A DNA stretch of 64,000 nt. Origin: Octopus vulgaris (Eukaryota). The notes beneath the pieces were generated by a model. It had not been told where the DNA came from. It saw only the letters and a program-made list of their open reading frames with translations, and searched no databases. Positions 1,483 through 63,612 of the stretch are shown here, piece after piece. How positions within the stretch are numbered: the first letter of the stretch is position 1; each line of letters starts with the position of its first letter. Made by a program: the position numbers and the translations under genes. The DNA is taken from assembly GCA_951406725.2 (NCBI GenBank), contig OX597822.1:88536001-88600000 (forward strand). Reading direction: 5' to 3'.

Positions 1483-2065
1483 CTTTTCTACTCTAGGCAC
1501 AAGACCCGAAATTTTTAGGGAGGGGGCAGTCGATTAGATTGACTCTAGTACGCAACTGGTACTTATTTAATCGACCCCGAAAGGATGAAAGGCAAAGTCG
1601 ACCTCGATGGAATTAGAACTCAAAACGCAAAGACAGACCAAATACTTATTTCTTTACTACCCACAGGGGGCTAAACAAAGAGAGGACAAACAAGGACAGA
1701 CAAACGAATTAAGTCGATTATATCGACCCCAGTGCGTAAATGGTACTTAATTTATCGACCCCGAAAGGATGAAAGGCAAAGTCGACCTTGGCGGAATTTG
1801 AACTCAGAATGTAAAGACAGACGAAATACCTATTTCTTTATTACCCACAAGGGGCTAAACACAGAGAGGACAAACAAGGACAGACAAACGGATTAAGTCG
1901 ATTATATCGACCCCAGTGCGTAACTGGTACTTATTTAATCGACCCCTAAAGGATGAAAGGCAAAGTCGACCTTGGCGGAATTTGAACTCAGAGTGTAACG
2001 GCAGACGAAATACCGCTAAGCATTTCGCCCGGCGTGCTAGCGTTTCTGCCAGCTCGCCGCCTTAA
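1483..2065 (-). mobile_element. SINE family 1 trimer: head-body-tailA-body-tailA-body-tailB
   Basis: tRNA-like head ggcggcgagctggcaga and B box gagttcaaattcc. Three copies of the body. TSD gctagttgaaatatt (1468-1482) / gctagtgaaaatatt (2066-2080). Confidence 0.93.
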
Positions 2066-9205: not shown

Positions 9206-9603
9206 AAGGCGGCGAGCTGGCAGAATCGTTAGCACACCGGGCAATTTGCTTAGCGGTATTTCGCCTGCCGCTACGTTCTGGGTTCAAATTCCGCCGAGGT
9301 CGACTTTGCCTTTCCTCCTTTCGGGATCTATTAAATAAGTACCAGTTACGCACTGGGGTCGATGTAATCGACTTAATCCGTTTGTCTGTCCTTGTTTGTC
9401 CTGTCTGTGTTTAACCCCTTGTGGGTAGTAAAGAAATAAGTATTTCGCCTGTTGTTACGTTCATAGTTCAAATTCCGCCGAGGTCGGTTTTGCCTTTCGT
9501 CCTTTCGGGATCGATGAATTGATTACCAGTTGCATACTAGGGTCGATCTAATCGACTGGCCACCTTCCCAAAAATTTTGGCCCTTGTGCCTAGAGTAGAA
9601 AAG
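9206..9603 (+). mobile_element. SINE family 1 dimer (tail A + tail B) within (ATT)n
   Basis: Head, body, tail A ending aaagaaata, body restarting at agtatttc, tail B gtgcctagagtagaaaaga. Confidence 0.92.
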
Positions 9604-9997: not shown

Positions 9998-10450
9998 TGG
10001 TGGGCTGGTAGCAACGTTAGCGCATCGGACAAAATGCCTTGCGGTATTATGTTACGACCCGAGAGAAGGCGGAGAGCTGGTAGAATCGTTAGCACGTCGG
10101 GCGAAATGCTTAGCGGTATTTCGTCTGCCGTTACGTTGTGAGTTCAAATTCCGCCGAGGTCGACTTTACTTTTCATCCTTTCGGGGTCGATAAATTAAGT
10201 ACCAGTTACGCACTGGGGTCGATGTAATCGACTTAATACCTATGTCTGTCCTTGTTTGTCCCTTCTATGTTTAGCCCCTTGTGGGTAATAAAGAAATAGG
10301 TATTATGTTACGATCCGTTAAGTTTCATGTTAAAATCCCACCATAGTCAATTTTGCCTTTCATCCTTTCATGATCGATCAAATAAAAAATCAGTGAAATG
10401 CCGGAGCAGATATACTATACCTGTCACAAAAATTTGAGGAATTCTATAAT
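9998..10450 (+). mobile_element. Old SINE family 1 copy hosting a young tail-A copy (10065-10298)
   Basis: TSD ggtattatgttacgacccg (10043-10061) / ggtattatgttacgatccg (10299-10317). Confidence 0.9.
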
Positions 10451-24574: not shown

Positions 24575-25178
24575 AAGGCGGCAAGCTGGCAGAATCGTTA
24601 GCACGCCAGACAAAATCCCTAACAGCATTTCATCAGTTTTCACGTTCTGGGTTCAAATTCCGCCAATGTCGACTTTGCCTTTCATTTCCTCGGTTCGGTA
24701 AAATAAGTACCGGTGAGCTGGCAGAAACGTTAGCACGCCGGGCGAAATGCGTAGCCGTATTTCGTCTGCCGTTACGTTCTGAGTTCAAATTCCGCCGAGG
24801 TCGACTTTGCCTTTCATCCTTTCGGGGTCGATTAAATAAGTACCAGTTACGCACTGGGGTCGATGTAATCGACTTAATCCGTGTATCTGTCCTTGTTTGT
24901 CCCTTCTGTGTTTAGCCCCTTGTGGGTAGGTAGTAAAGAAATAGGTATTTCGTCTGTCTTTACGTTCTGAGTTCATATTCCACCGAGGTCGACTTTGCCT
25001 TTTATCCTTTCGGGGTTGATAAATTAAGTACCAGTTGCGTACTAGGGTCGATCTAATCGACTGGCCCCCACTCCACAAAATTTTGGGCTTTGTGCCTAGA
25101 GTAGAAAAGAATACTGGTGTTGATGTAACCGACTTACACTTCCCTAAAATCACTGGCCCTGTGCCAAAATTTGAAACT
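24575..25178 (+). mobile_element. Host SINE family 1 copy interrupted by an A+B dimer (24712-25110)
   Basis: Host stops at aaataagtacc; a new head ggtgagctggcag follows; junction aaagaaata|ggtatttc at 24944; host resumes atactggtgttgatgtaaccgac. Confidence 0.88.
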
Positions 25179-25844: not shown

Positions 25845-26233
25845 CCTTTTCTAATCTAGGCACAAAGCCCGAAATTTTGGAGAGGGGCCAGTCGATTAGA
25901 TCGACCCCAATACACAACGGGTTCTTAATTTATCGACCCCGAAAGGATAAAAGGCAAAGTCGACCTCGGCGGAATTTGAACTCAGAGCGTAGCGGCAGAC
26001 AAAATACCTATTTCTTTACTACCCACAAGGGGCTAAACACAGAGAGGACAAACAAGGACAGACACACGGATTAAGTCGATTATATCGACCCCAGAGCGTA
26101 ACTGGTTCTTATTTAATCGACCCCGAAAGGATGAAAGGCAAAGTCGACCTCGGCAGAATTTGAACTCAGAACGTAGCGGCAGACAAAATACTGCTAAGCA
26201 TTTCACTCGGCGTGCTAACTTTTCTGCCAGCTC
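25845..26233 (-). mobile_element. SINE family 1 dimer (A+B)
   Basis: Junction aatacc|tatttcttt at ~26003-26018. Confidence 0.9.
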
Positions 26234-27523: not shown

Positions 27524-27740
27524 TTTACTCTTTTACTTGTTTCAGTCATCTGACTGCGGCCATGCTGGAGCACCACCTTTAGTCGAGCAAATCGACCCCA
27601 GGACTTATTCTTTTGAAGCCTAGTACTTATTCTATCGAACTCTTTTGCCGAACCGCTAAGTTACGGGGACGTAAACACACCACCATCGGTTGTCAAACGA
27701 TGTTGGGGGGGGGGGTACAAACACAGACATACAAACATGT

Positions 27741-30345: not shown

Positions 30346-31074
30346 CTCGCTCTTTCTGTCTTTGTCTCGTTATTAAATACATGTGCATGTGTGTGAATAC
30401 ACAGCCTCTCCTCTTCTTCTTCTTCCTCCTCTTCTTCTTCCTCCTCTTCTTCTTCCTCCTCTTCTTCTTCCTCCTCTTCTTCTTCCTCCTCCTCCTCCTT
30501 TGTCTATGATTATTTTCCTTTCACTTACACATTGCCTGTCATGAAGACTAGTTAATGCACTCACCCTTATGTTAACTCTCTCTTTGTCTTTGTTTTACTC
30601 TCTCTCTCCCTTTCTCTCTCTCTTCCTCTCTCTCTCTTTCTTTCTTTCTCTCTTCCTCTCTCTTTCTCCCTTTCTCTGTCTTTCTTTCTCCTCCCCTCCT
30701 TTTACGATGTAACGCATGACTGGAGAAATCAACCAACGTTGGCTGTTATTATACAGAGTTTATTTGAATTATTCATACTAGCAGATAGACTACACCCTTC
30801 GGGAGGTTTTCTACTAGCCCCTTGATATAATTTTCATATTTGATTCCCATTTCTAATAATTTCTCATATTTTACGTCTAATTGTTTCTTTGTATAATAGT
30901 GCTCACTTGCTTAGCAAATATTGCTTTCATTATTATTTTATCACAATCATAATCTAGTCCAACAACAGGGGGACAAACAGTTTGTCAAGTTTTACTTTCC
31001 TCTCAAAGCAACAAAGAGATTTCATTTCAGCAGCCCACCTGTAAGCTTTGCAGTGTGTGTGTGTGTGCGTGTGT

Positions 31075-31121
<47 letters not shown>

Positions 31122-31884
31122 CATTGCAAACAATGAATGAAATAAACATGAAATGAAAAAATCGTATAAATAAAAGGGCATTACTACAGATGTATATGCC
31201 TCCAACTTTGTTGCCTCATAACATCCAGAAAAATGGATACTTTTTAACAAAATTTTCTACAAATACCGCTTAGATTTTGTGGCTTCAGAGTATACGGGGA
31301 TTTAAAGGGAAGATTTTTTGCGAGGGGGTGGAGAGAGGAGTTTCAGAAAATTCACGCCATCTGAATTTTTTTCCCTCATAACTTTCAGGAAGATGGGTAT
31401 CTTTTAATGAAAATTTATACAAATCCCTTTCAAACGGCATAGAATACGATTATAAAGAAATTTGTGGGAAAATTTTTTCGGGGATTTTCCCCATTTTTTT
31501 TTTTTTTTTTTTTTAACCACAGCCTTCGAAATTATGGAATTGGGGGAGTATCTTTGTTTGAAAAAATTCTGAAAATTCTCTTTTTTACATCCCCCTCCCA
31601 CATCACCCCATCCAGACCTATTTTAGTCAATTTTTTTGCACTTCAAAACCATGTGAAGAGCATTTTCCATCCAACGACAACCCTCCTCGTTTCTTTATCA
31701 CTCTCGCATGTATTAATGTTTTTCACTATTTTCCCCCATAAATACATTTATATACTATAGAAAAGAAAATTTCAGAAATTATGAACTTTTTGCAACTCTA
31801 CTCCCTGCCGCCGATTGTTTCTGTTTAGAAATTAAAATACTGGAGAGCATGAGAAGGTCATTTATCCAGTGATTTTTTTTTTAA

Positions 31885-32120
31885 TTACGGAGCTGTACTT
31901 GCATAGCAAGTGACTTGATCTGAAATCGTGTGCTGAAACAAAAACAATTGCAGCGTGGAAGATGTTTGTAAACCATTCAAGAACACACAAATACCGTTAG
32001 TTTCACTTCAACATTAAAACTTCATTTGAGTCAGAATATATTCGTCGCTTTGAAACCGCGACCTGTTCACTGACAAAACTTCACAAAAGAGATACAGCAC
32101 GAAGTTTTGTTAGTGAACAG
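31885..32120 (-). mobile_element. Probable Penelope pLTR remnant with short inverted repeat
   Basis: ctgttcactgacaaaacttc / gaagttttgttagtgaacag inverted arms; stem gtcgc...gcgac followed by GAA on the minus strand. Confidence 0.4.
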
Positions 32121-32645
32121 CACACACACGCTTAATTACCCAACTTTCTAGGTTCTTCTCACAGCTATCCCGCATTCAAAAAATATACGGTTATTTTTTT
32201 TAAATTTCATTCAAAAAATTATGTTTTTTACATTACATTTACATTAATAGCGAATTAAATTTAAAAGAGAAAGTGAGAGACTTTGCAAATGAAATGGAAT
32301 ACTCTGCAGCGAATGCAGTGAATATTTAAATTTGTGATGAATTGGACGCAGTGAATATTTAAATTTGCAAGAAATTGGAGTTTAAAAAATTCAAGAAACT
32401 TGAAAAAACGAAACTATAGAAAATTTCGACGAACATTCGTTTGGTTGGTGCTGTTTGGTTGTTATTGGTCGTGCTATTGAAGGTGAGGAATTGTTGCTGT
32501 TGTTAAACTTGTTGATATTTATTTGAAAAAAAAACTGTTAATTGCTTTTTTGTAAAGCAAATTGTTAATTCTCCCGCGTGAGGGGGAATTGCTGTTGTTC
32601 AAAAAATGTGTTGCTGTGTGAATTTTATGTGGTGCCATTTTTGAA

Positions 32646-34019
32646 ATGGAACCAGAAATGTTGTCTTCGGAGAATGAATCTCCAAACAAAGAATCACCAA
32701 GAAAATGCCAAACTAAAGAATCCCCAAAGCCTAGTACAAGTAAAGACTCACCTAGAAAGGAGGAAAAAACAAAGTTGAACGCGAGGAGGAACGTGGCGGT
32801 GTCCAGTCTTGCAACTGGCGAAGCACAAAGTGGTACAAAGGAGATGAGCTTCGCGGCAGCCGCCGGGAGCAGGACTAGGAAAATTAATACCGAAAATTTA
32901 AGAGGACACAGTGAGTTATTGTCAAGAGAGGAGACCGAAATTAAAGTAGCCCCTCCACAAAGCATTATAACAGACGCTCTGGAAAGAACAACCATTTTCA
33001 AAACATACAATGTGGAGAAAAAAAGAATTGAATATGTAAATGAAAAAATATTGAAAAATGTTTAAAGCCCATATCGGGCGATATAAAATATGTGACAAGG
33101 GGAAAAAGGTACACGACCATAGAAGTAAGAATGGAGTCGGCCGAGAAGGCAAATCATCACTCGGTCGAACTATTAAGAACGGAGGAGGTGGTATTCCTGC
33201 CTATATATATGGGGAGGAGAGCCTCGCGGATCAAGATTAGTACGCCCTGCCGGAGGTGAATGGCTGGTGGCAGCAGTTATGCTGGATTTATAAGATGAAA
33301 TAACGCTGTTATCTGCAGAAGTAATGGAAGAGAAAAAAACTGGTCGGGTCAGACAGTAAAATTATTGATCCAAGCGGAGCCACTGACTCTGGAGAAAATT
33401 CCAGAGGTTATTGATGCGATGGATATCAAATTGGTCGTGATGGTGGAGGGGAGGAAGCCCCGTTGTTTTAAGTGTGGAATGAAAGGCCACGTTAGGTCTG
33501 ATTGTAAGACCGGACAGGAAGAAATAGAAGAAAAGGAAGAAAACAATGAAGAAAACAAAGAAGAGCAAAAAGAAAAAGACAGAGTTGAAGAATAACAAAG
33601 AAGGGGAGGGTTGGGAGATTGTTAAAAACAAAAGGAAAATAAAACCAACCTCCCCAGAAAAGACACAAAGAACTATAAAAAGGCAAAAAAAGCCAGTAAG
33701 AAAAGAAGAAAAAAGGAAGAACTATACATGGCGGTGGGGGTTTACAATTCGAGGCTACTACAACGCCTAAAATGTATTAAAAAAACATAAAGAAAATAGA
33801 AAGTGAAGACGTAAGAGAAGGATACGAGATTTATAATGTAGATAAAACAACGTATAATATTTTTGCGAACGATTATAGAGACGACGTAGGCCCATTAAGA
33901 TGAGATATATCGGCCCAAATTTACGATGGATTGCACACTCGGACTTAACGAGCCCGAGAAAAAGAAAAAGAGGTGGATTCCTCTCCGCGTCAAAGTGAGG
34001 ATCTAACGAACTAAGGTAA
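32646..34019 (+). pseudogene. Tx1 ORF1 (gag-like, CCHC zinc knuckle), frameshifted
   Basis: SFAAAA motif, VEGRKPRCFKCGMKGHVRSDC, GWEIVKNKRK. Confidence 0.88.
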
Positions 34020-34024
34020 GACTT

Positions 34025-37000
34025 ATGGCTGTTCACGTAGGATGTTTGAATGTGCGTGGCCTGACGGCGAGCTGGAAGCAAGGGCGTTTCCTAAACGACG
34101 TCAGGTCACGTAAGTTAGATGTTATTGTTGCTACTGAAACCTGGGTAAAAGGGCCAAGTGGTCTGCTCCCGCTCCTGGACGGTTACGAGAAATTCATTTC
34201 TCCAGGCCGACCTGCGGGCAGGAGTGGGGTGTTGGTCCTACTCAAAAGAATCCGGATTTTAGAGAAAGAGTTAATTTTCTCTGACCCAGAAAGTAGTCTG
34301 GTCGTCTTAAATTTAACTTTCAGTTGTGGTAACAAAATCAGACTGGTGGCAATTAACTCCCCCAATTCCGGTCAGACTGAGTATTTTCGAAACCTAGAGA
34401 AGTTTCTTGGTACGTCGCATCCGTTAGTTTTGTTAGGAGATTTTAACACTATTCACGATGCACGCGTGGATTATGTTGGCTCGAATACGAATAGGAGACC
34501 GAATCCTGGCTTCCGGGATCTACTAAGTCGATTTCAGTTAGTAGATCCATACAGACTAGAATTCCCGAACGCCCCATTATGGACGTGATTAAGTGGCGAC
34601 GGGCCTTCAAGGTCGTATATAGATAGGATCCTAATTAGAAAAATAGATAAAGACATAGCTAAGTGTCCACAGTTTTACTTGGTCAGCTACAGTAATCATA
34701 AGTTTATCACCTGTAAGCTGAACCTAGATAAGTTACATAGTAGAAGCTCCGGCTACTGGAAACTCAATAAGTCTCTTTTGGCGATTGAAGAGTACAGGAA
34801 CCGGATTAAGTTGTTGATACAGAGGGCATCGACAGGTAGCATCATTAACAATAAATGGTGGTACGCTCTAAAAAGATCCATTAAATTTGGGTCTATTAGA
34901 TATTGCATAGTTTAGTGGCTAGAGAACGTAGGAGGGAAGCAGAACTAGCTAAGGTCCTAGAGGAAGCCATGGTGACTGGCAATGTATCTCAGGTGAAGGC
35001 AGAGACTGGAATTAAACCAGCACATCGAAGCCAAACACGTGGGGTATATTGTCAGGGCTAGACTTCGTGCAATGGGTTGTGAGGGGATCAGAGCCGCTGA
35101 ATGGGCTCGAGTGGTGGAAGCCCAACGTGGAAATGATTCCACAATTCGATCTTTGGAGAACCTACAAGGTGAGTTGGTAAACGAACCCGAGGAGATGTGT
35201 AAGACTCTTCAGGAGCACTTCGCCCAGCTTTTCGGGGGGAGCGATGGACCGGATAGTAGGTTGGACCTTACGGACTTCCTCACCGGGCTGCCGCGTCTCT
35301 CGGGGCGGAATGCGGAGTGCTGTGAAGGGTCGATCACACCTGAGGAGGTGATAGAGGTTATAGCAGACTGCGGCGTTGGTAAGGCGCCAAGTCTTGATGG
35401 TCTGCCGTGCGAATTGTATAAAAGTATGCCAGACTTGTTCGGGCACATGCTGACCGGGGTTTACGCGAACTGGCAGCAGAACAGGATGAGTCCTAGATCT
35501 GTGCGCCGAGGAGTGGTGACTCTGGTCATGAAGGACTCAGACAAGAGGGATAGAATAGATCATTTTAGGCCCATCACTCTGTTAAATACAGAGTTGAAGA
35601 TTTTGGCCAAGGTGTTAGCAAAATGATTGGCGCGTGTCGCGGATGGTCTGATCGGTTGAAGCATCCAGGATAATCTCCAGAAAGGTTTGGTAACGATTCT
35701 GGCAAGGATGGAGCTTTTGTCCATTTAGACCAATCGAAAGCATTCGATAGGGTTGACTATCGCTACCTGGTGTCCGTTCTCGTGCAATTCGGGCTGGGTC
35801 TTGGCTTCCTCGTATGGATCATACAGTTATATGACAACATCGACTCGATCGTTCGGGTGAACGGCTTTCTTTCTAAGCCGTTCTGTATCAAACGTTCGGT
35901 TCGCCCAGGATGTCTGCTCTCCCCAATTTTGTATGTGATGACTCTGGAGCCGTTACTGCGAAGGTTGAGTGGCATCCTAAGGGAACCAGTTGATGGGGGA
36001 TCGGTTTCAGCATATGCGGACGACATTACCATCATCGTGACCAAGATGGAACACCTACAGGGAGTAGGCGAAACCATTAAGATTTACGAGACGGTGGCAG
36101 GAGTAAAGATTAACTGGGGAAAATCAGTCGGCTTGCAACTCGGCACATGTAAGGGCAAGTCGATGCCTTCGAATAGCGTTGTGGGCCCGGTTAAATTGCT
36201 AGGAGTCTGGTTTGGACCAGACCTCCAGGTAGAAAAGAATTGGGCAAAGGTATCGAGCAAGGTGACCCAGATAGTCAAGACCTGGTCTTGGCGGTGGCTA
36301 TCCTTGAAAGGGAGGACGGAGGTGGTCAATGTGTTTATCGCATCGGTCATTATTTACCGCCTAACTGTCGTTCTCTGCCCTGATTCGTGGTTGAGCAAGT
36401 TGGAGAGACAAAACTTCTGCTATTTGTGGAAGGCCTTGACTCCACTTGTGAGGCGTTCTACCTGCTGTCAGAACCCGTTAAAGGGAGGACTAGGGATGCC
36501 TTGGCTGTTGATGCGCAAGTACGCGCTGAGGTTCATGTACCTCTGGCTTCTCCTGGATGGTGAACGGATGTGGTCTCTGCTTGTGAAACGGATGTTTCTT
36601 AGGTTCACTAGTTTCGGTAGACGAGAAAGCTGGTTTCGTCGAAGATCGAGGTTGGGTACATGGTTTACGGAGTGCCGTAAGGCCTTCCTACTGTTCTGTT
36701 GCTCGGGTAGTGCCAGTGGTTTTGGTACCACTGCATCTTTCTATAGCAGGTTGGTAAAGATTAGAAACGATGACGCCCTAGGGGAGACCCTGGGTCTCGA
36801 GGATAACCAGTCAGACAGTCTGTTCCAAAGGACATTCGGGCCAAGGACTTTGGATAACTTCCAAAAATCTCTGGCCTGGCAATGTTACCGAGGAGCCTTA
36901 CCCGTTCGGGATAAGCTCACCAGACACGGCCAGCCCGGTCCTTCGGCCTGTCCAGGATGCGAGCAGGATAGGGAAACCGTCCTGCACGCTATTGTTCAGT

Positions 37001-37348
37001 GTCTGGAAGTGTCAGAAGTGTGGATTTATGTGGAACACTTGTTGTCGGATTCAAGAAGAGTACAGCTGTCATCTGAGTCAATTTTAGAAATTGACCCGCC
37101 GGGTTTCCTCACGAAAGAAGGTAAGGATTGCTTTCTCGTACTAATAGCAATTGCGAAAGGGGTGAGTGGAAGTCGAGAATGAAAGGATTGGCAACAGGCA
37201 ACTTCACCTCTGGTCTCAGGTTGGTGAGATTCTTCACCTTTCACTTGAAAAGAACAGTGAGGCTAGAGAGATGATGCCTGTCGGAGAGGATGTTAAAGAC
37301 AGATGGATGCGTGTAGCGAGGATGCTGGGTGTGACAGACTCCTCATGA
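34025..37348 (+). pseudogene. Tx1 ORF2: APE endonuclease, RT and zf-RVT, with stops and frameshifts
   Basis: LNVRGL, ATET, GDFN, SYIDRI, GYWKLN, FRPITLLN, KAFDRV, SVRPGCLLSP, AYADD, GGLG, CPGC...ETVLHAIVQC. Confidence 0.95.
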
Positions 37349-37944
37349 ACGTGCTATAATGTTGAATAAAAAGGTACCAGTAGCAGAACAGGGTTCGTGG
37401 AGTCGGAGCTTAACCTGTTTTTTTACTACCTCATTGTTTGTTTGTAATTTTGTCTTTTATGTTGTATTTCATTCGATTTCATTATAACCGCACGTGAATT
37501 TTTAATTATACTCATCTGTATGTCTGACTCCGATTAGGCTGTGCTATCCCCTCTTTGTCAGCCCCTCGTGGGCAATAAAGAAAGAAATTTCTTAGAACAT
37601 GAATTTATAAAAATATTTCCAGATAGTCAACCCTTTAATAATTGCTTTCTTTTTGTTACATACATAATAAGCAGCTTTCTCCATCATAGTATAGATAAGG
37701 AGACTACGGTCTTTAACAAAAGAACAAAATTCCTTCAGAATAATTTACATAATAAAAACAGTCATAGTTACCCGTTGAACTTTAAGGAAGTTTCTCATAC
37801 CTGAATTCTTCTACCGACAGGTGGCTTTTGTAAGATGCATCTTAACTGGTCATTTTCTTTGCCTGAAAGCCCTAGCTTATGAAGATTACCATTTAAACAT
37901 TCATTGACATCACCAAGTGTGTCAATAATTATTGATGGGTTTCA

Positions 37945-38104
37945 GTGCCCGTAATCTAGCGGTTCGGAAAAAGGACCCGATAGAATAAGTACCAGGCTTT
38001 AAAAAATAAGTACTGGGGTTGATTCGTTCGACTAAAATCCAAGGCGGTGCCCCAGCATTGCTGCAGTCTAATGACTGAAACAAGTAAAAGATAAAAGATA
38101 AAGA
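37945..38104 (+). mobile_element. SINE family 2, 3' part
   Basis: tagcggttcgg...aaggcggtgccccagcat...tgactgaaacaagtaaaagataaaaga. Confidence 0.82.
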
Positions 38105-62072: not shown

Positions 62073-62288
62073 AAGGCGGCGAGCTGGCAGAATCGTTAGC
62101 ACGCCAGACAAAATGCTTAGCGGCATTTCGTCCGTCCTTACATTCTGAGTTCAAATTCCGCTGAGGTCGACTTTGCCTTTCTTTCTTTCGGATTCGATGA
62201 AATAGGTACCCGTTGCGCAATGGGGTCGATGTAATCGACTGGCCCCCTCCCCCAAAATTTCATGCCTTGTGCCTATAGTAGGGAGGAT
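62073..62288 (+). mobile_element. SINE family 1 monomer (tail B) after (ATT)n
   Basis: Full head, body and ccttgtgcctatagtag tail. Confidence 0.9.
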
Positions 62289-62292
62289 TTAT

Positions 62293-63612
62293 TATAATTT
62301 ACTTTTAATCTACATGTTTGTTAAAATCACTTGCCGAGACACACCCAGCGTCCTCGGGCGAATGAAGGATAAGAGATGTTACAGTATGACTGAAACCTTG
62401 AAGAGGGGAAGTGGCGGGCGCAGTAGCAAAATGTCTTCATTTAATACAACACAGACATTTAAATTGATAGGGTTTTTCTAGGGATGTGGACAGTACTTGT
62501 CAGCACAATTTTTTGGATTTCTCTGAGACATGGTTCTCCTGGGATGTTATCTAGATGTTTCTGACATCCCTTTTTTATCATACATAGGGCACCTACAATT
62601 GCAAGAACAGTTCTTGCTTTAAGATGCCACATCTTTTGTATTTCAATTTCCATGTCCTTATATTTACTTAATTTGTCAAATTCCTTTACAGATATATTTT
62701 TATCAGTGGGAACATTTACATCTATTAGTTTACAGGTATTTTCTTCCCTGCCTTTAATAATAATGTTTGGTCGATTATTCTGTATCGTTTTGTCAGTGTT
62801 GATTGGAAAATCCCAGAGGATAGTGACATTTTTACCTTCAACGACTGGTTCAGGATGATGTTCATTCTAGTAAGCAGGAGTGCCGATTTTGTAGTGTTCA
62901 CATATTTTCCAATGTAAATAATGTCCTACTCTATCGTGGCGACTTTTTCATTCGTTTGGTGTCAGCACAAGACATCCCGAAACGAGACGGTCTATTGTTT
63001 CGTCAAATGTGTCGCAAAATTTGCATTTAGGGTCAGAACCGTTTTGAAGAACGTTAGCCTGGTAGTTTCTGGTAAGCAAGCTTTGACCTTGTGCCGCCAG
63101 TATGAAACCTCCAGTCTCTGCTTTCAGTCCTGAACTTCTCAATCACTGATGGGTTGTTGCTTGGTCTACATCAGCATTTCGACTTCAAAGAATATACTGC
63201 CTGGCCCCACCGTTCCTTAGTTTGTTTCTGCTTGTTTGGTAGCAGTGGTTTCGGGTTCTTCATCTAATTCAGGGTTAATGCCAAGTTCCCTTACGAATTT
63301 GCAAGCTTCTTTGACAATAGAATGTAACTTTTTGTTGCTTTCGTGTTTGCACGCAAGCCGCAGCATCCAGTCCGCTGTACTAGATAAGTACCTGTTCATT
63401 GGTATTATGGAGGTCCTATAGCACAGTTCTAGCTGCATCAGTCCTCTTCTCCCATTACTTCTAGGTAGGTACAGACGATCAACATCTGCTTTTGGGTGGT
63501 GCATGTTCCTAGATGTTAGTAATTTTCTTATCTTCCTGTCCAGGCGTTGGAGCTCTGTGGGATCCCAGTTAATGATGTTAAAACCGTATTGGACCACTGG
63601 AAGTGCCAGGGT
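62293..63612 (-). mobile_element. R4/Dong-clade LINE 3' part (RT end, CCHC, restriction-like endonuclease, 3' UTR)
   Basis: LDRKIRKLL, HPKADVDRLYLPRSNGRRGL, LKAETGGFILAAQGQSL, CKFC...ETIDRLVSGC, ILWDFPI.TD, IVGALCMI; (TAA)n context. Confidence 0.9.

Follow-up and report, generated by a model that had tools for sequence, protein, structure and literature searches.

In the SINEU / Tx1-Mar system of crocodilians (Kojima 2015, PMC4494074), a Tx1-type LINE has been proposed to mobilise a SINE, with sites in another transposon or in microsatellites and with SINE copies that are often tandem. There, the link is drawn from shared target, age and 5' heads, and the available part of that paper reports no LINE resembling the 3' half of SINEU-1. 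Tails shared with L1-clade LINEs are described from maize (ZmSINE2/3 with LINE1-1_ZM) and Chlamydomonas (SINEX-3 with L1-1_CR), where a 3' end of ~45-80 nt is held in common, with a hairpin and compensatory changes (Ohshima 2012, PMC3472496; Ohshima 2013, PMC3747384). According to the accessible portions of these two articles, only three SINEs carry L1-clade tails, all of them plant or algal, and stringent 3' recognition is proposed to be ancestral in the L1 group and to have been relaxed later; Table 1 of PMC3747384 holds no animal L1 or Tx1 pair. In the literature searched, as far as its accessible text extends, we found no report of a SINE-LINE tail partnership for animal L1-group elements, and none of an L1-type or Tx1-type tail on any octopus SINE (including PMC4758252, PMC5753468, PMC7245038, PMC9004415 and PMC8967140), while Repbase or Dfam annotation may exist. 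SINEs are reported to constitute 11.6% of the octopus genome (PMC13282606, available part).

Here, we analysed 64,000 nucleotides of the Octopus vulgaris genome (the window) together with related copies elsewhere in the genome, and propose that a SINE tail (tail A) and a clan of L1-group, likely Tx1-type, LINEs probably constitute a functional SINE-LINE tail pair. As in crocodilians, a Tx1-type LINE would mobilise the SINE, sites lie in another transposon or in microsatellites and SINE copies are often tandem; unlike there, it is a common 3' end that links the octopus elements, and the SINE has a tRNA-like head. Unlike the maize and Chlamydomonas pairs, to the extent that these are described in the accessible text, the octopus elements lack a terminal poly(A) or poly(T) run, and the LINEs show target-site preference.

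The LINE in the window is a decayed full-length copy of 5.15 kb (32437-37584, plus strand), placed in the L1 group, and likely of Tx1 type, by its domains and delimited by a target-site duplication and by empty sites. An ORF1 remnant in several frames (32646-33986, plus strand), traced by tblastn with intact ORF1s, contains a CCHC zinc knuckle from ~33464 (Pfam zf-CCHC, E 1.3e-4). The ORF2 remnant (34025-37348, plus strand) comprises an apurinic endonuclease, a reverse transcriptase (RT) and a C-terminal zf-RVT region in a frame interrupted by stops and frameshifts. It is 59-73% identical, over three frames, to an intact relative of 1128 aa (L097), Exo_endo_phos, RVT_1 and zf-RVT being present in both, and intact relatives exist with an ORF2 of 1,125-1,148 aa. 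The stop codon (37346-37348) is followed by a 3' UTR of 235 nt (37349-37583, plus strand) whose end is shared by other copies; the conserved terminal ~42 nt (37541-37583, plus strand) are common to SINE tail A and all clan families. The 16-bp target duplication (5' copy 32421-32436, 3' copy 37585-37600, both plus strand) has three mismatches between its copies.

The insertion interrupts a host repeat, denoted X, whose 5' part (31002-32420, plus strand; matching L226 and L227) and 3' end (37601-37696, plus strand) are joined in empty copies. Repeat X is ~1.5 kb long and ends in TATAGTATAGAT, a possibly Helitron-like end. A 30-mer at the insertion site has 93 exact matches in the genome, with no LINE tail in 28 of the first 30. 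Five of the top 11 DNA-search matches occupy one repeat X site, which is also found empty, and four copies on other contigs (L002, L004, L006, L011) use the site of the window LINE with differing 3' UTR variants and 5' ends. Since the site is reused by copies with differing ends and is mostly empty, insertion was independent and site-preferring, like that of Tx1L and Tx1-Mar as given in the accessible text of PMC4494074. Elsewhere, near-identical intact LINEs (L091-L095; G000:C30:10435000-10452500 and others) form head-to-tail arrays of ~5.27 kb, each at the 5' end of the next. A different and very common short repeat, ~75-80% alike across many loci, is present in the window at 37933-38104 and 27524-27682.

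The shared end is an integral part of the LINE. All 29 other copies from a DNA search carry it, a count biased by the tail contained in the query. A protein search agrees: of its top 30 matches, the 29 other than the window LINE all have the end, two of them behind an insertion. The first-pass annotation had asked whether other copies might lack the end, which would make it a separate SINE tail inserted here; with copies from both searches sharing it, this was excluded. Among 60 lower-ranked protein matches, the tail was detected by profile in 42 and in variant or degenerate form by eye in seven, one had a SINE inserted in the UTR, and ten had unrelated sequence. A LINE-type tail pattern gave 332 exact matches, the first 30 of which have clan ORF2 upstream (12), ORF1 only (17) or neither (1). 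Tail matches in a non-Tx1 clade, the second objection foreseen, did not emerge: every assignable non-SINE carrier had an ORF1 or ORF2 of the same clan upstream, the non-clan LINE control being four RT fragments, only two of them with long downstream sequence.

The end is shared by several autonomous L1-group subfamilies, by ORF1-only derivatives and by a family that targets (ATCT)n. The latter family (2,386 exact matches of a 26-mer; 24 of 30 examined in (ATCT)n; ORF2 within 1.5 kb in 13 of 30) keeps the end at 38-59% ORF2 identity. ORF1-only elements occur in head-to-tail arrays with a 1.78-kb unit, one element lying between the two copies, 2.0 kb apart, of a 19-bp duplication, and a second family of this kind was found via L114. 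Like the SINE, such elements depend on ORF2 in trans and have retained this end.

Several further observations concern these families. At least two ORF1-only non-autonomous families carry the clan tail, often beside full-length LINEs (L111, L120-L146, L197-L200, L212-L218, L220, L221), and members of the (ATCT)n family lie at L166:8010-8620, L173, L180 and L235-L264. Additional tail variants with ACC/GGT and GCCT/AGGT stems were read by eye (L350, L372, L373, L386, L223; L339, L371; L136), the divergent clan end of L136 being followed by (ATT)n. A clan LINE lies within a SINE-A copy, at the end of the SINE body (L219:3750-7552), and the opposite nesting, SINE-A inside a LINE 3' UTR, occurs at L334. 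A LINE-SINE chimera formed by template switching was considered for L202/L219 and excluded, as the LINE inside the SINE has its own 16-bp duplication.

The clan belongs to the L1 group by its domain order, with a separate ORF1 and an ORF2 that has an apurinic endonuclease at the N-terminus, then RT and a zinc-binding region at the C-terminus, and the best relative of solved structure is human L1 ORF2p (E 4e-66; R2, 4e-26). Within this group, the clan is likely Tx1-type, based on site preference, a CCHC ORF1 and RT similarity; the RT tree contains neither Tx1L, Keno or Kibi nor a vertebrate L1 as reference, and its deep nodes do not resolve. Its families favour a multicopy site in repeat X or the (ATCT)n microsatellite. 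A zf-CCHC domain is present in six of six clan ORF1s (E 4e-5 to 0.07; two above the curated cut-off) and Transposase_22 is absent, the knuckle standing in place of that domain in Tx1-clade ORF1s according to the available part of PMC5203782. The RT scores 209.5 bits against a coral protein whose name, 'TX1', is an automatic annotation, and 112 bits against human L1; identity to the coral protein and to fish and amphibian relatives is 36-42%, closer than to human L1. The closest named homologue is from Argonauta hians (60%), and it falls inside the single tree group formed by the eleven tail-bearing RT rows (100/97). Deeper in the tree nothing can be read, since the outgroup fragments are long branches, and neither ESM Atlas nor cluster look-ups returned a clade name for the family. 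The partner could instead represent an L1-group lineage of its own, outside the Repbase Tx1 clade, which would leave the mechanism unchanged. The composition of the tree, its deep branches and the automatic origin of the sole 'TX1' name are compatible with such a lineage, but the RT scores, the knuckle-bearing ORF1 and the site preferences render it unlikely.

Tail A had been equated in the first-pass annotation with the 3' end of this particular LINE. The LINE string quoted there corresponds to 37547-37583, and the SINE string to the majority of 107 SINE tails. A blastn comparison of window positions 37300-37700 with the whole window gave alignments of 32-41 nt, 79-84% identical, with eight SINE tails (best E 4e-5). 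We also trained a profile HMM exclusively on 27 LINE ends (L007, L008 and L016 left out). Within the window it detected 15 SINE tails besides the LINE end, the top match being a SINE tail A at 10256-10296 (plus strand; 44.3 bits), and nothing in the reversed window. In 400 kb (40 arbitrary 10-kb stretches), it gave 35 matches, 33 of them at 15 bits or more, with none in the reversed control; by row reading, these are 29 SINE-A, four LINEs flanked by (ATCT)n and two weak matches. In a set of 268 tails, 107 of them SINE, the last 42 nt of SINE tails and LINE clusters are 0.72-0.87 identical (five degenerate singletons, 0.55-0.70), the preceding 42 nt are at background (0.42-0.54), and SINE copies are 0.894 alike among themselves over the last 42 nt. 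The homology is present in both elements and confined to the 3' end. The cluster of the window LINE (n=7) reaches 0.755 to the SINE tails, and the best single match, 0.87, comes from an ORF1-only copy. Hence, the shared ~42 nt are borne out, but the end is clan-wide and the window subfamily is not the best match (76% vs up to 87%). Searches for a LINE bearing the exact tail of the SINE gave 1, 4, 1 and 3 matches but no such LINE; these matches were ORF1-only elements, altered SINEs and two members of a LINE subfamily ending in CAGGTAT. The tail of L224, SINE-like in appearance, was set aside as a short fragment with no upstream ORF; this locus also contains an inverted duplication of ~570 bp with a short spacer (L224:770-1560).

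The reference SINE-A monomer (10066-10296, plus strand) consists of a tRNA-like head, a conserved body and tail A, and is flanked by a 19-bp duplication beginning GGTATT. By visual inspection, the head presumably contains A and B boxes; ARAGORN and Rfam gave no match to it. From the density of tail A in the 40 arbitrary stretches, roughly 200,000 copies are estimated for the 2.8-Gb, 227-contig genome, in which a single exact SINE 22-mer occurs 65,244 times. Tail A runs into another SINE body in 48 of 103 copies, and in 12 of 25 in a random sample, giving 184-bp repeats. In the window, a head-less array of such 184-bp repeats, in the order head-body-tail A-body-tail A-body-tail B, lies at 1490-2065 (minus strand; tail A at 1833-1873 and 1649-1689), and one in the order head-body-tail A-body-tail B at 25875-26233 (minus strand; tail A at 26011-26051). 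Most arrays have no second head, and could result from 5' annealing at a homologous site or from copying of composite masters; a direct full-length self-insertion with a 15-bp duplication was found at L115. Bodies preceding tail B inside arrays are of intermediate age (0.85 identity). Tail B itself, found on the same body and ending in GAAT or (ATT)n, is present in the window at 9206-9572, 24707-25101 and 62073-62311, and no partner LINE for it was found in 1.64 Mb of sequence examined. A SINE-A subfamily that ends in GGGCAATAAAGAAA-TAAGA (L043, L060, L085, L112, L163) is nearer to the last bases of the window LINE; three of the copies seen are inserted at AGAAACG in the SINE head. Two short motifs, sought in two supplementary files of PMC4824008 for the named octopus SINEs (OK, OR1, OR2) or Deu/Meta/CORE, were absent from those files.

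SINE and LINE copies have similar target duplications of about 10-21 bp and almost never a poly(A) tail. Duplications flank 25 of 41 solo SINEs (median 15 bp; three of the 25 lie in (TA)n), compared to 9 of 2077 in a mismatched-pair control, and ten full-length LINEs have duplications of 13-25 bp, with boundaries judged by distance. As had been noticed before, the window LINE is not followed by GGTAY, its own target duplication coming next. SINE tails continue with TAGGTA in 59 of 107 cases, whereas only 2 of 161 non-SINE tails continue with GGYA. In the 5' copy of the duplication, which is pure target, GGYA occurs in 10 of 25 (background 3.9%), yet in 4 of 13 cases it is found on the 3' side only, which points to both a target preference and a 3' extension belonging to the SINE. 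The reading of GGTAY as a simple endonuclease site fails on these four, where the 5' copy lacks it. In the (ATCT)n family, CTTATC begins the continuation in 26 of 30 copies, off-target ones included, and another LINE subfamily mostly retains TTGGAT in varied flanks. We note that seven copies of this TTGGATG subfamily (L013, L014, L020, L022, L023, L026, L029) have one downstream flank in common, and that at L230 a non-clan RT fragment lies just downstream, so that the target may be another retrotransposon.

A sister subfamily flanked by GGTAY had been guessed to be the true partner. A genome search for LINE ends before GGYAT indeed recovered a subfamily ending (C)AGGTA(T), in 6 of its 10 best loci, or ~4 of 8 independent ones; in L297, AGGTA lies outside a 17-bp duplication. 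Its within-group identity (0.91; window subfamily 0.875), within a range of 0.875-0.957 for LINE subfamilies that gives rough ages from 4-11 copies each, resembles that of SINE-A bodies (0.89-0.91), and SINE-A and LINE subfamily identities overlap. Copies of the SINE body that carry other tails are 0.78-0.80 alike. No CAGGTAT copy was found in a SINE head, and by eye its tail is no closer to that of the SINE; we regard this subfamily as the best candidate partner.

The hairpin GCCC-CTYGT-GGGY, described in the first-pass annotation ahead of the A-rich end, is present in the window LINE as GCCC-CTCGT-GGGC (37561-37573, plus strand). In the centroid fold, it is predicted as a 4-bp hairpin atop a lower stem to which the AATAAAGA end contributes. 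The arms vary by family (GCCC/GGGY, GGCC/GGCT, ATCC/GGAT, AGCC/GGCT), and full pairing is possible in 12 of 12 GGCC/GGCT copies, 8 of 9 and 2 of 2 ATCC/GGAT copies and 3 of 3 AGCC/GGCT copies; the main ATCT family has only three of the four pairs, in all 28 copies. An arm-swap control discriminates little, as 70 of 134 swaps are still fully paired. In a 26-row alignment, which misregisters families with a 4-nt loop, 90.7% of cells are paired, as high a value being reached in 2 of 500 shuffles, but only one pair is changed on both sides, and 53 of 500 shuffles attain the observed covariation score. Folding z-scores for all eight tails tried lie between -1.6 and +1.3, none significant. The stem-loop is, in our view, plausible rather than proven.

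Tail A could alternatively be a LINE-derived relic, the SINE having moved through relaxed recognition of an A-rich end or as a passenger in tail-B composites that use another LINE. In favour of such a relic, composite arrays closed by tail B are frequent and have duplications flanking the whole array, and the hairpin statistics are weak. Nevertheless, 29 head-body-tail A monomers stop at tail A with duplications that resemble those of the clan, a single long A-run (L304) was seen among the inspected LINE and tail flanks, and independent ORF1-only families retain the same end, all of which makes a relic improbable. We consider it very improbable that conservation of the motif reflects polyadenylation or RNA processing (AATAAA), or ORF1 binding, instead of recognition by the RT. 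AATAAA is found in most LINE ends, and retention of the end by ORF1-only families would suit either role, but 78 of 101 SINE tails have AGTAAA, a change that loses the canonical signal while the predicted pair is kept as U-G, and copies stop 0-5 nt past the motif with no poly(A). That the clan acquired its end from the SINE is barely credible, even though the SINE is far commoner and SINE and LINE copies insert into one another (L219, L334), as the end is present in families whose ORF2 differ by 40-60%, while tail-A SINEs are ~90% alike and older SINE copies carry other tails. The direction from LINE to SINE is likely, since copies of this body bearing other tails are older than those with tail A.

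Based on these comparisons, we favour tail A and the clan as working partners, according to the following mechanism. The clan ORF2 protein would recognise the predicted stem-loop and the A-rich end, with the stringency suggested in the first-pass annotation, and thereby copy the SINE. An older SINE body probably acquired the terminal ~42 nt of some clan member before expanding to the tail copy number estimated above. On this model, reverse transcription would begin a few bases beyond AAAGAAA, within a short family-specific 3' extension, i.e. TAGGTAT in the SINE, CTTATCT in the ATCT family, and TTGGATG and CAGGTAT in two others. Pairing of this extension with the nicked target would then bias insertion towards GGTAT sites, including that in the SINE's own head. 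The decayed copy in the window would be a clan member that bears witness to the tail, the working partner being presumably a sister subfamily, with CAGGTAT as best candidate. Of this scheme, the common sequence, the element boundaries, the duplications and the site preferences are observed directly; the structure, its recognition, mobilisation and priming are inferred. More tentatively, and with doubt prevailing, one stringent 3' stem-loop may serve LINEs, ORF1-only passengers and the SINE alike, with a swappable extension of 5-7 nt steering each family to its target; the extension of the SINE would copy the site in its own head, yielding self-built arrays. The clan would then be a naturally RNA-tunable retrotransposon targeting system. 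If the short extension does steer insertion, RNA recognition would be separate from target choice, which is of relevance to site-directed retrotransposon tools. The proposed pairing is testable, as copies with an intact ORF2 of 1,130 aa exist, and it identifies a likely driver for a SINE family that is among the largest in octopus.

Compared to other known systems, within what the available text of each source covers, the clan resembles Xenopus Tx1L in Tx1D and fish Kibi and Koshi (via PMC4494074) in its insertion into a fixed repeat site or a microsatellite, the targets in octopus being repeat X, (ATCT)n and 5' regions of the elements themselves. The ORF1-only families are akin to HAL1, HeT-A and Ag-Sponge (Kojima 2018, PMC5786205), which bear ORF1 and depend on an autonomous partner, but, unlike these, several octopus families have one 3' end in common with both LINEs and a SINE. 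UnaL2/UnaSINE and the bivalve SINEs that pair with CR1, CR1-Zenon, L2 and Nimb (Martelossi 2024, PMC11481361; Nishihara 2016, PMC4824008) likewise display a tail-swapping body and head-less tandem arrays. There, arrays amount to at most about 3% of copies, against the 12 of 25 octopus tail-A copies that continue into another body in the random sample, and the four named partner lineages include no L1 or Tx1. If our interpretation is correct, these L1-group elements, with a conserved stem-loop borrowed by a SINE, would supply the animal case missing from the plant and algal L1 pairs.
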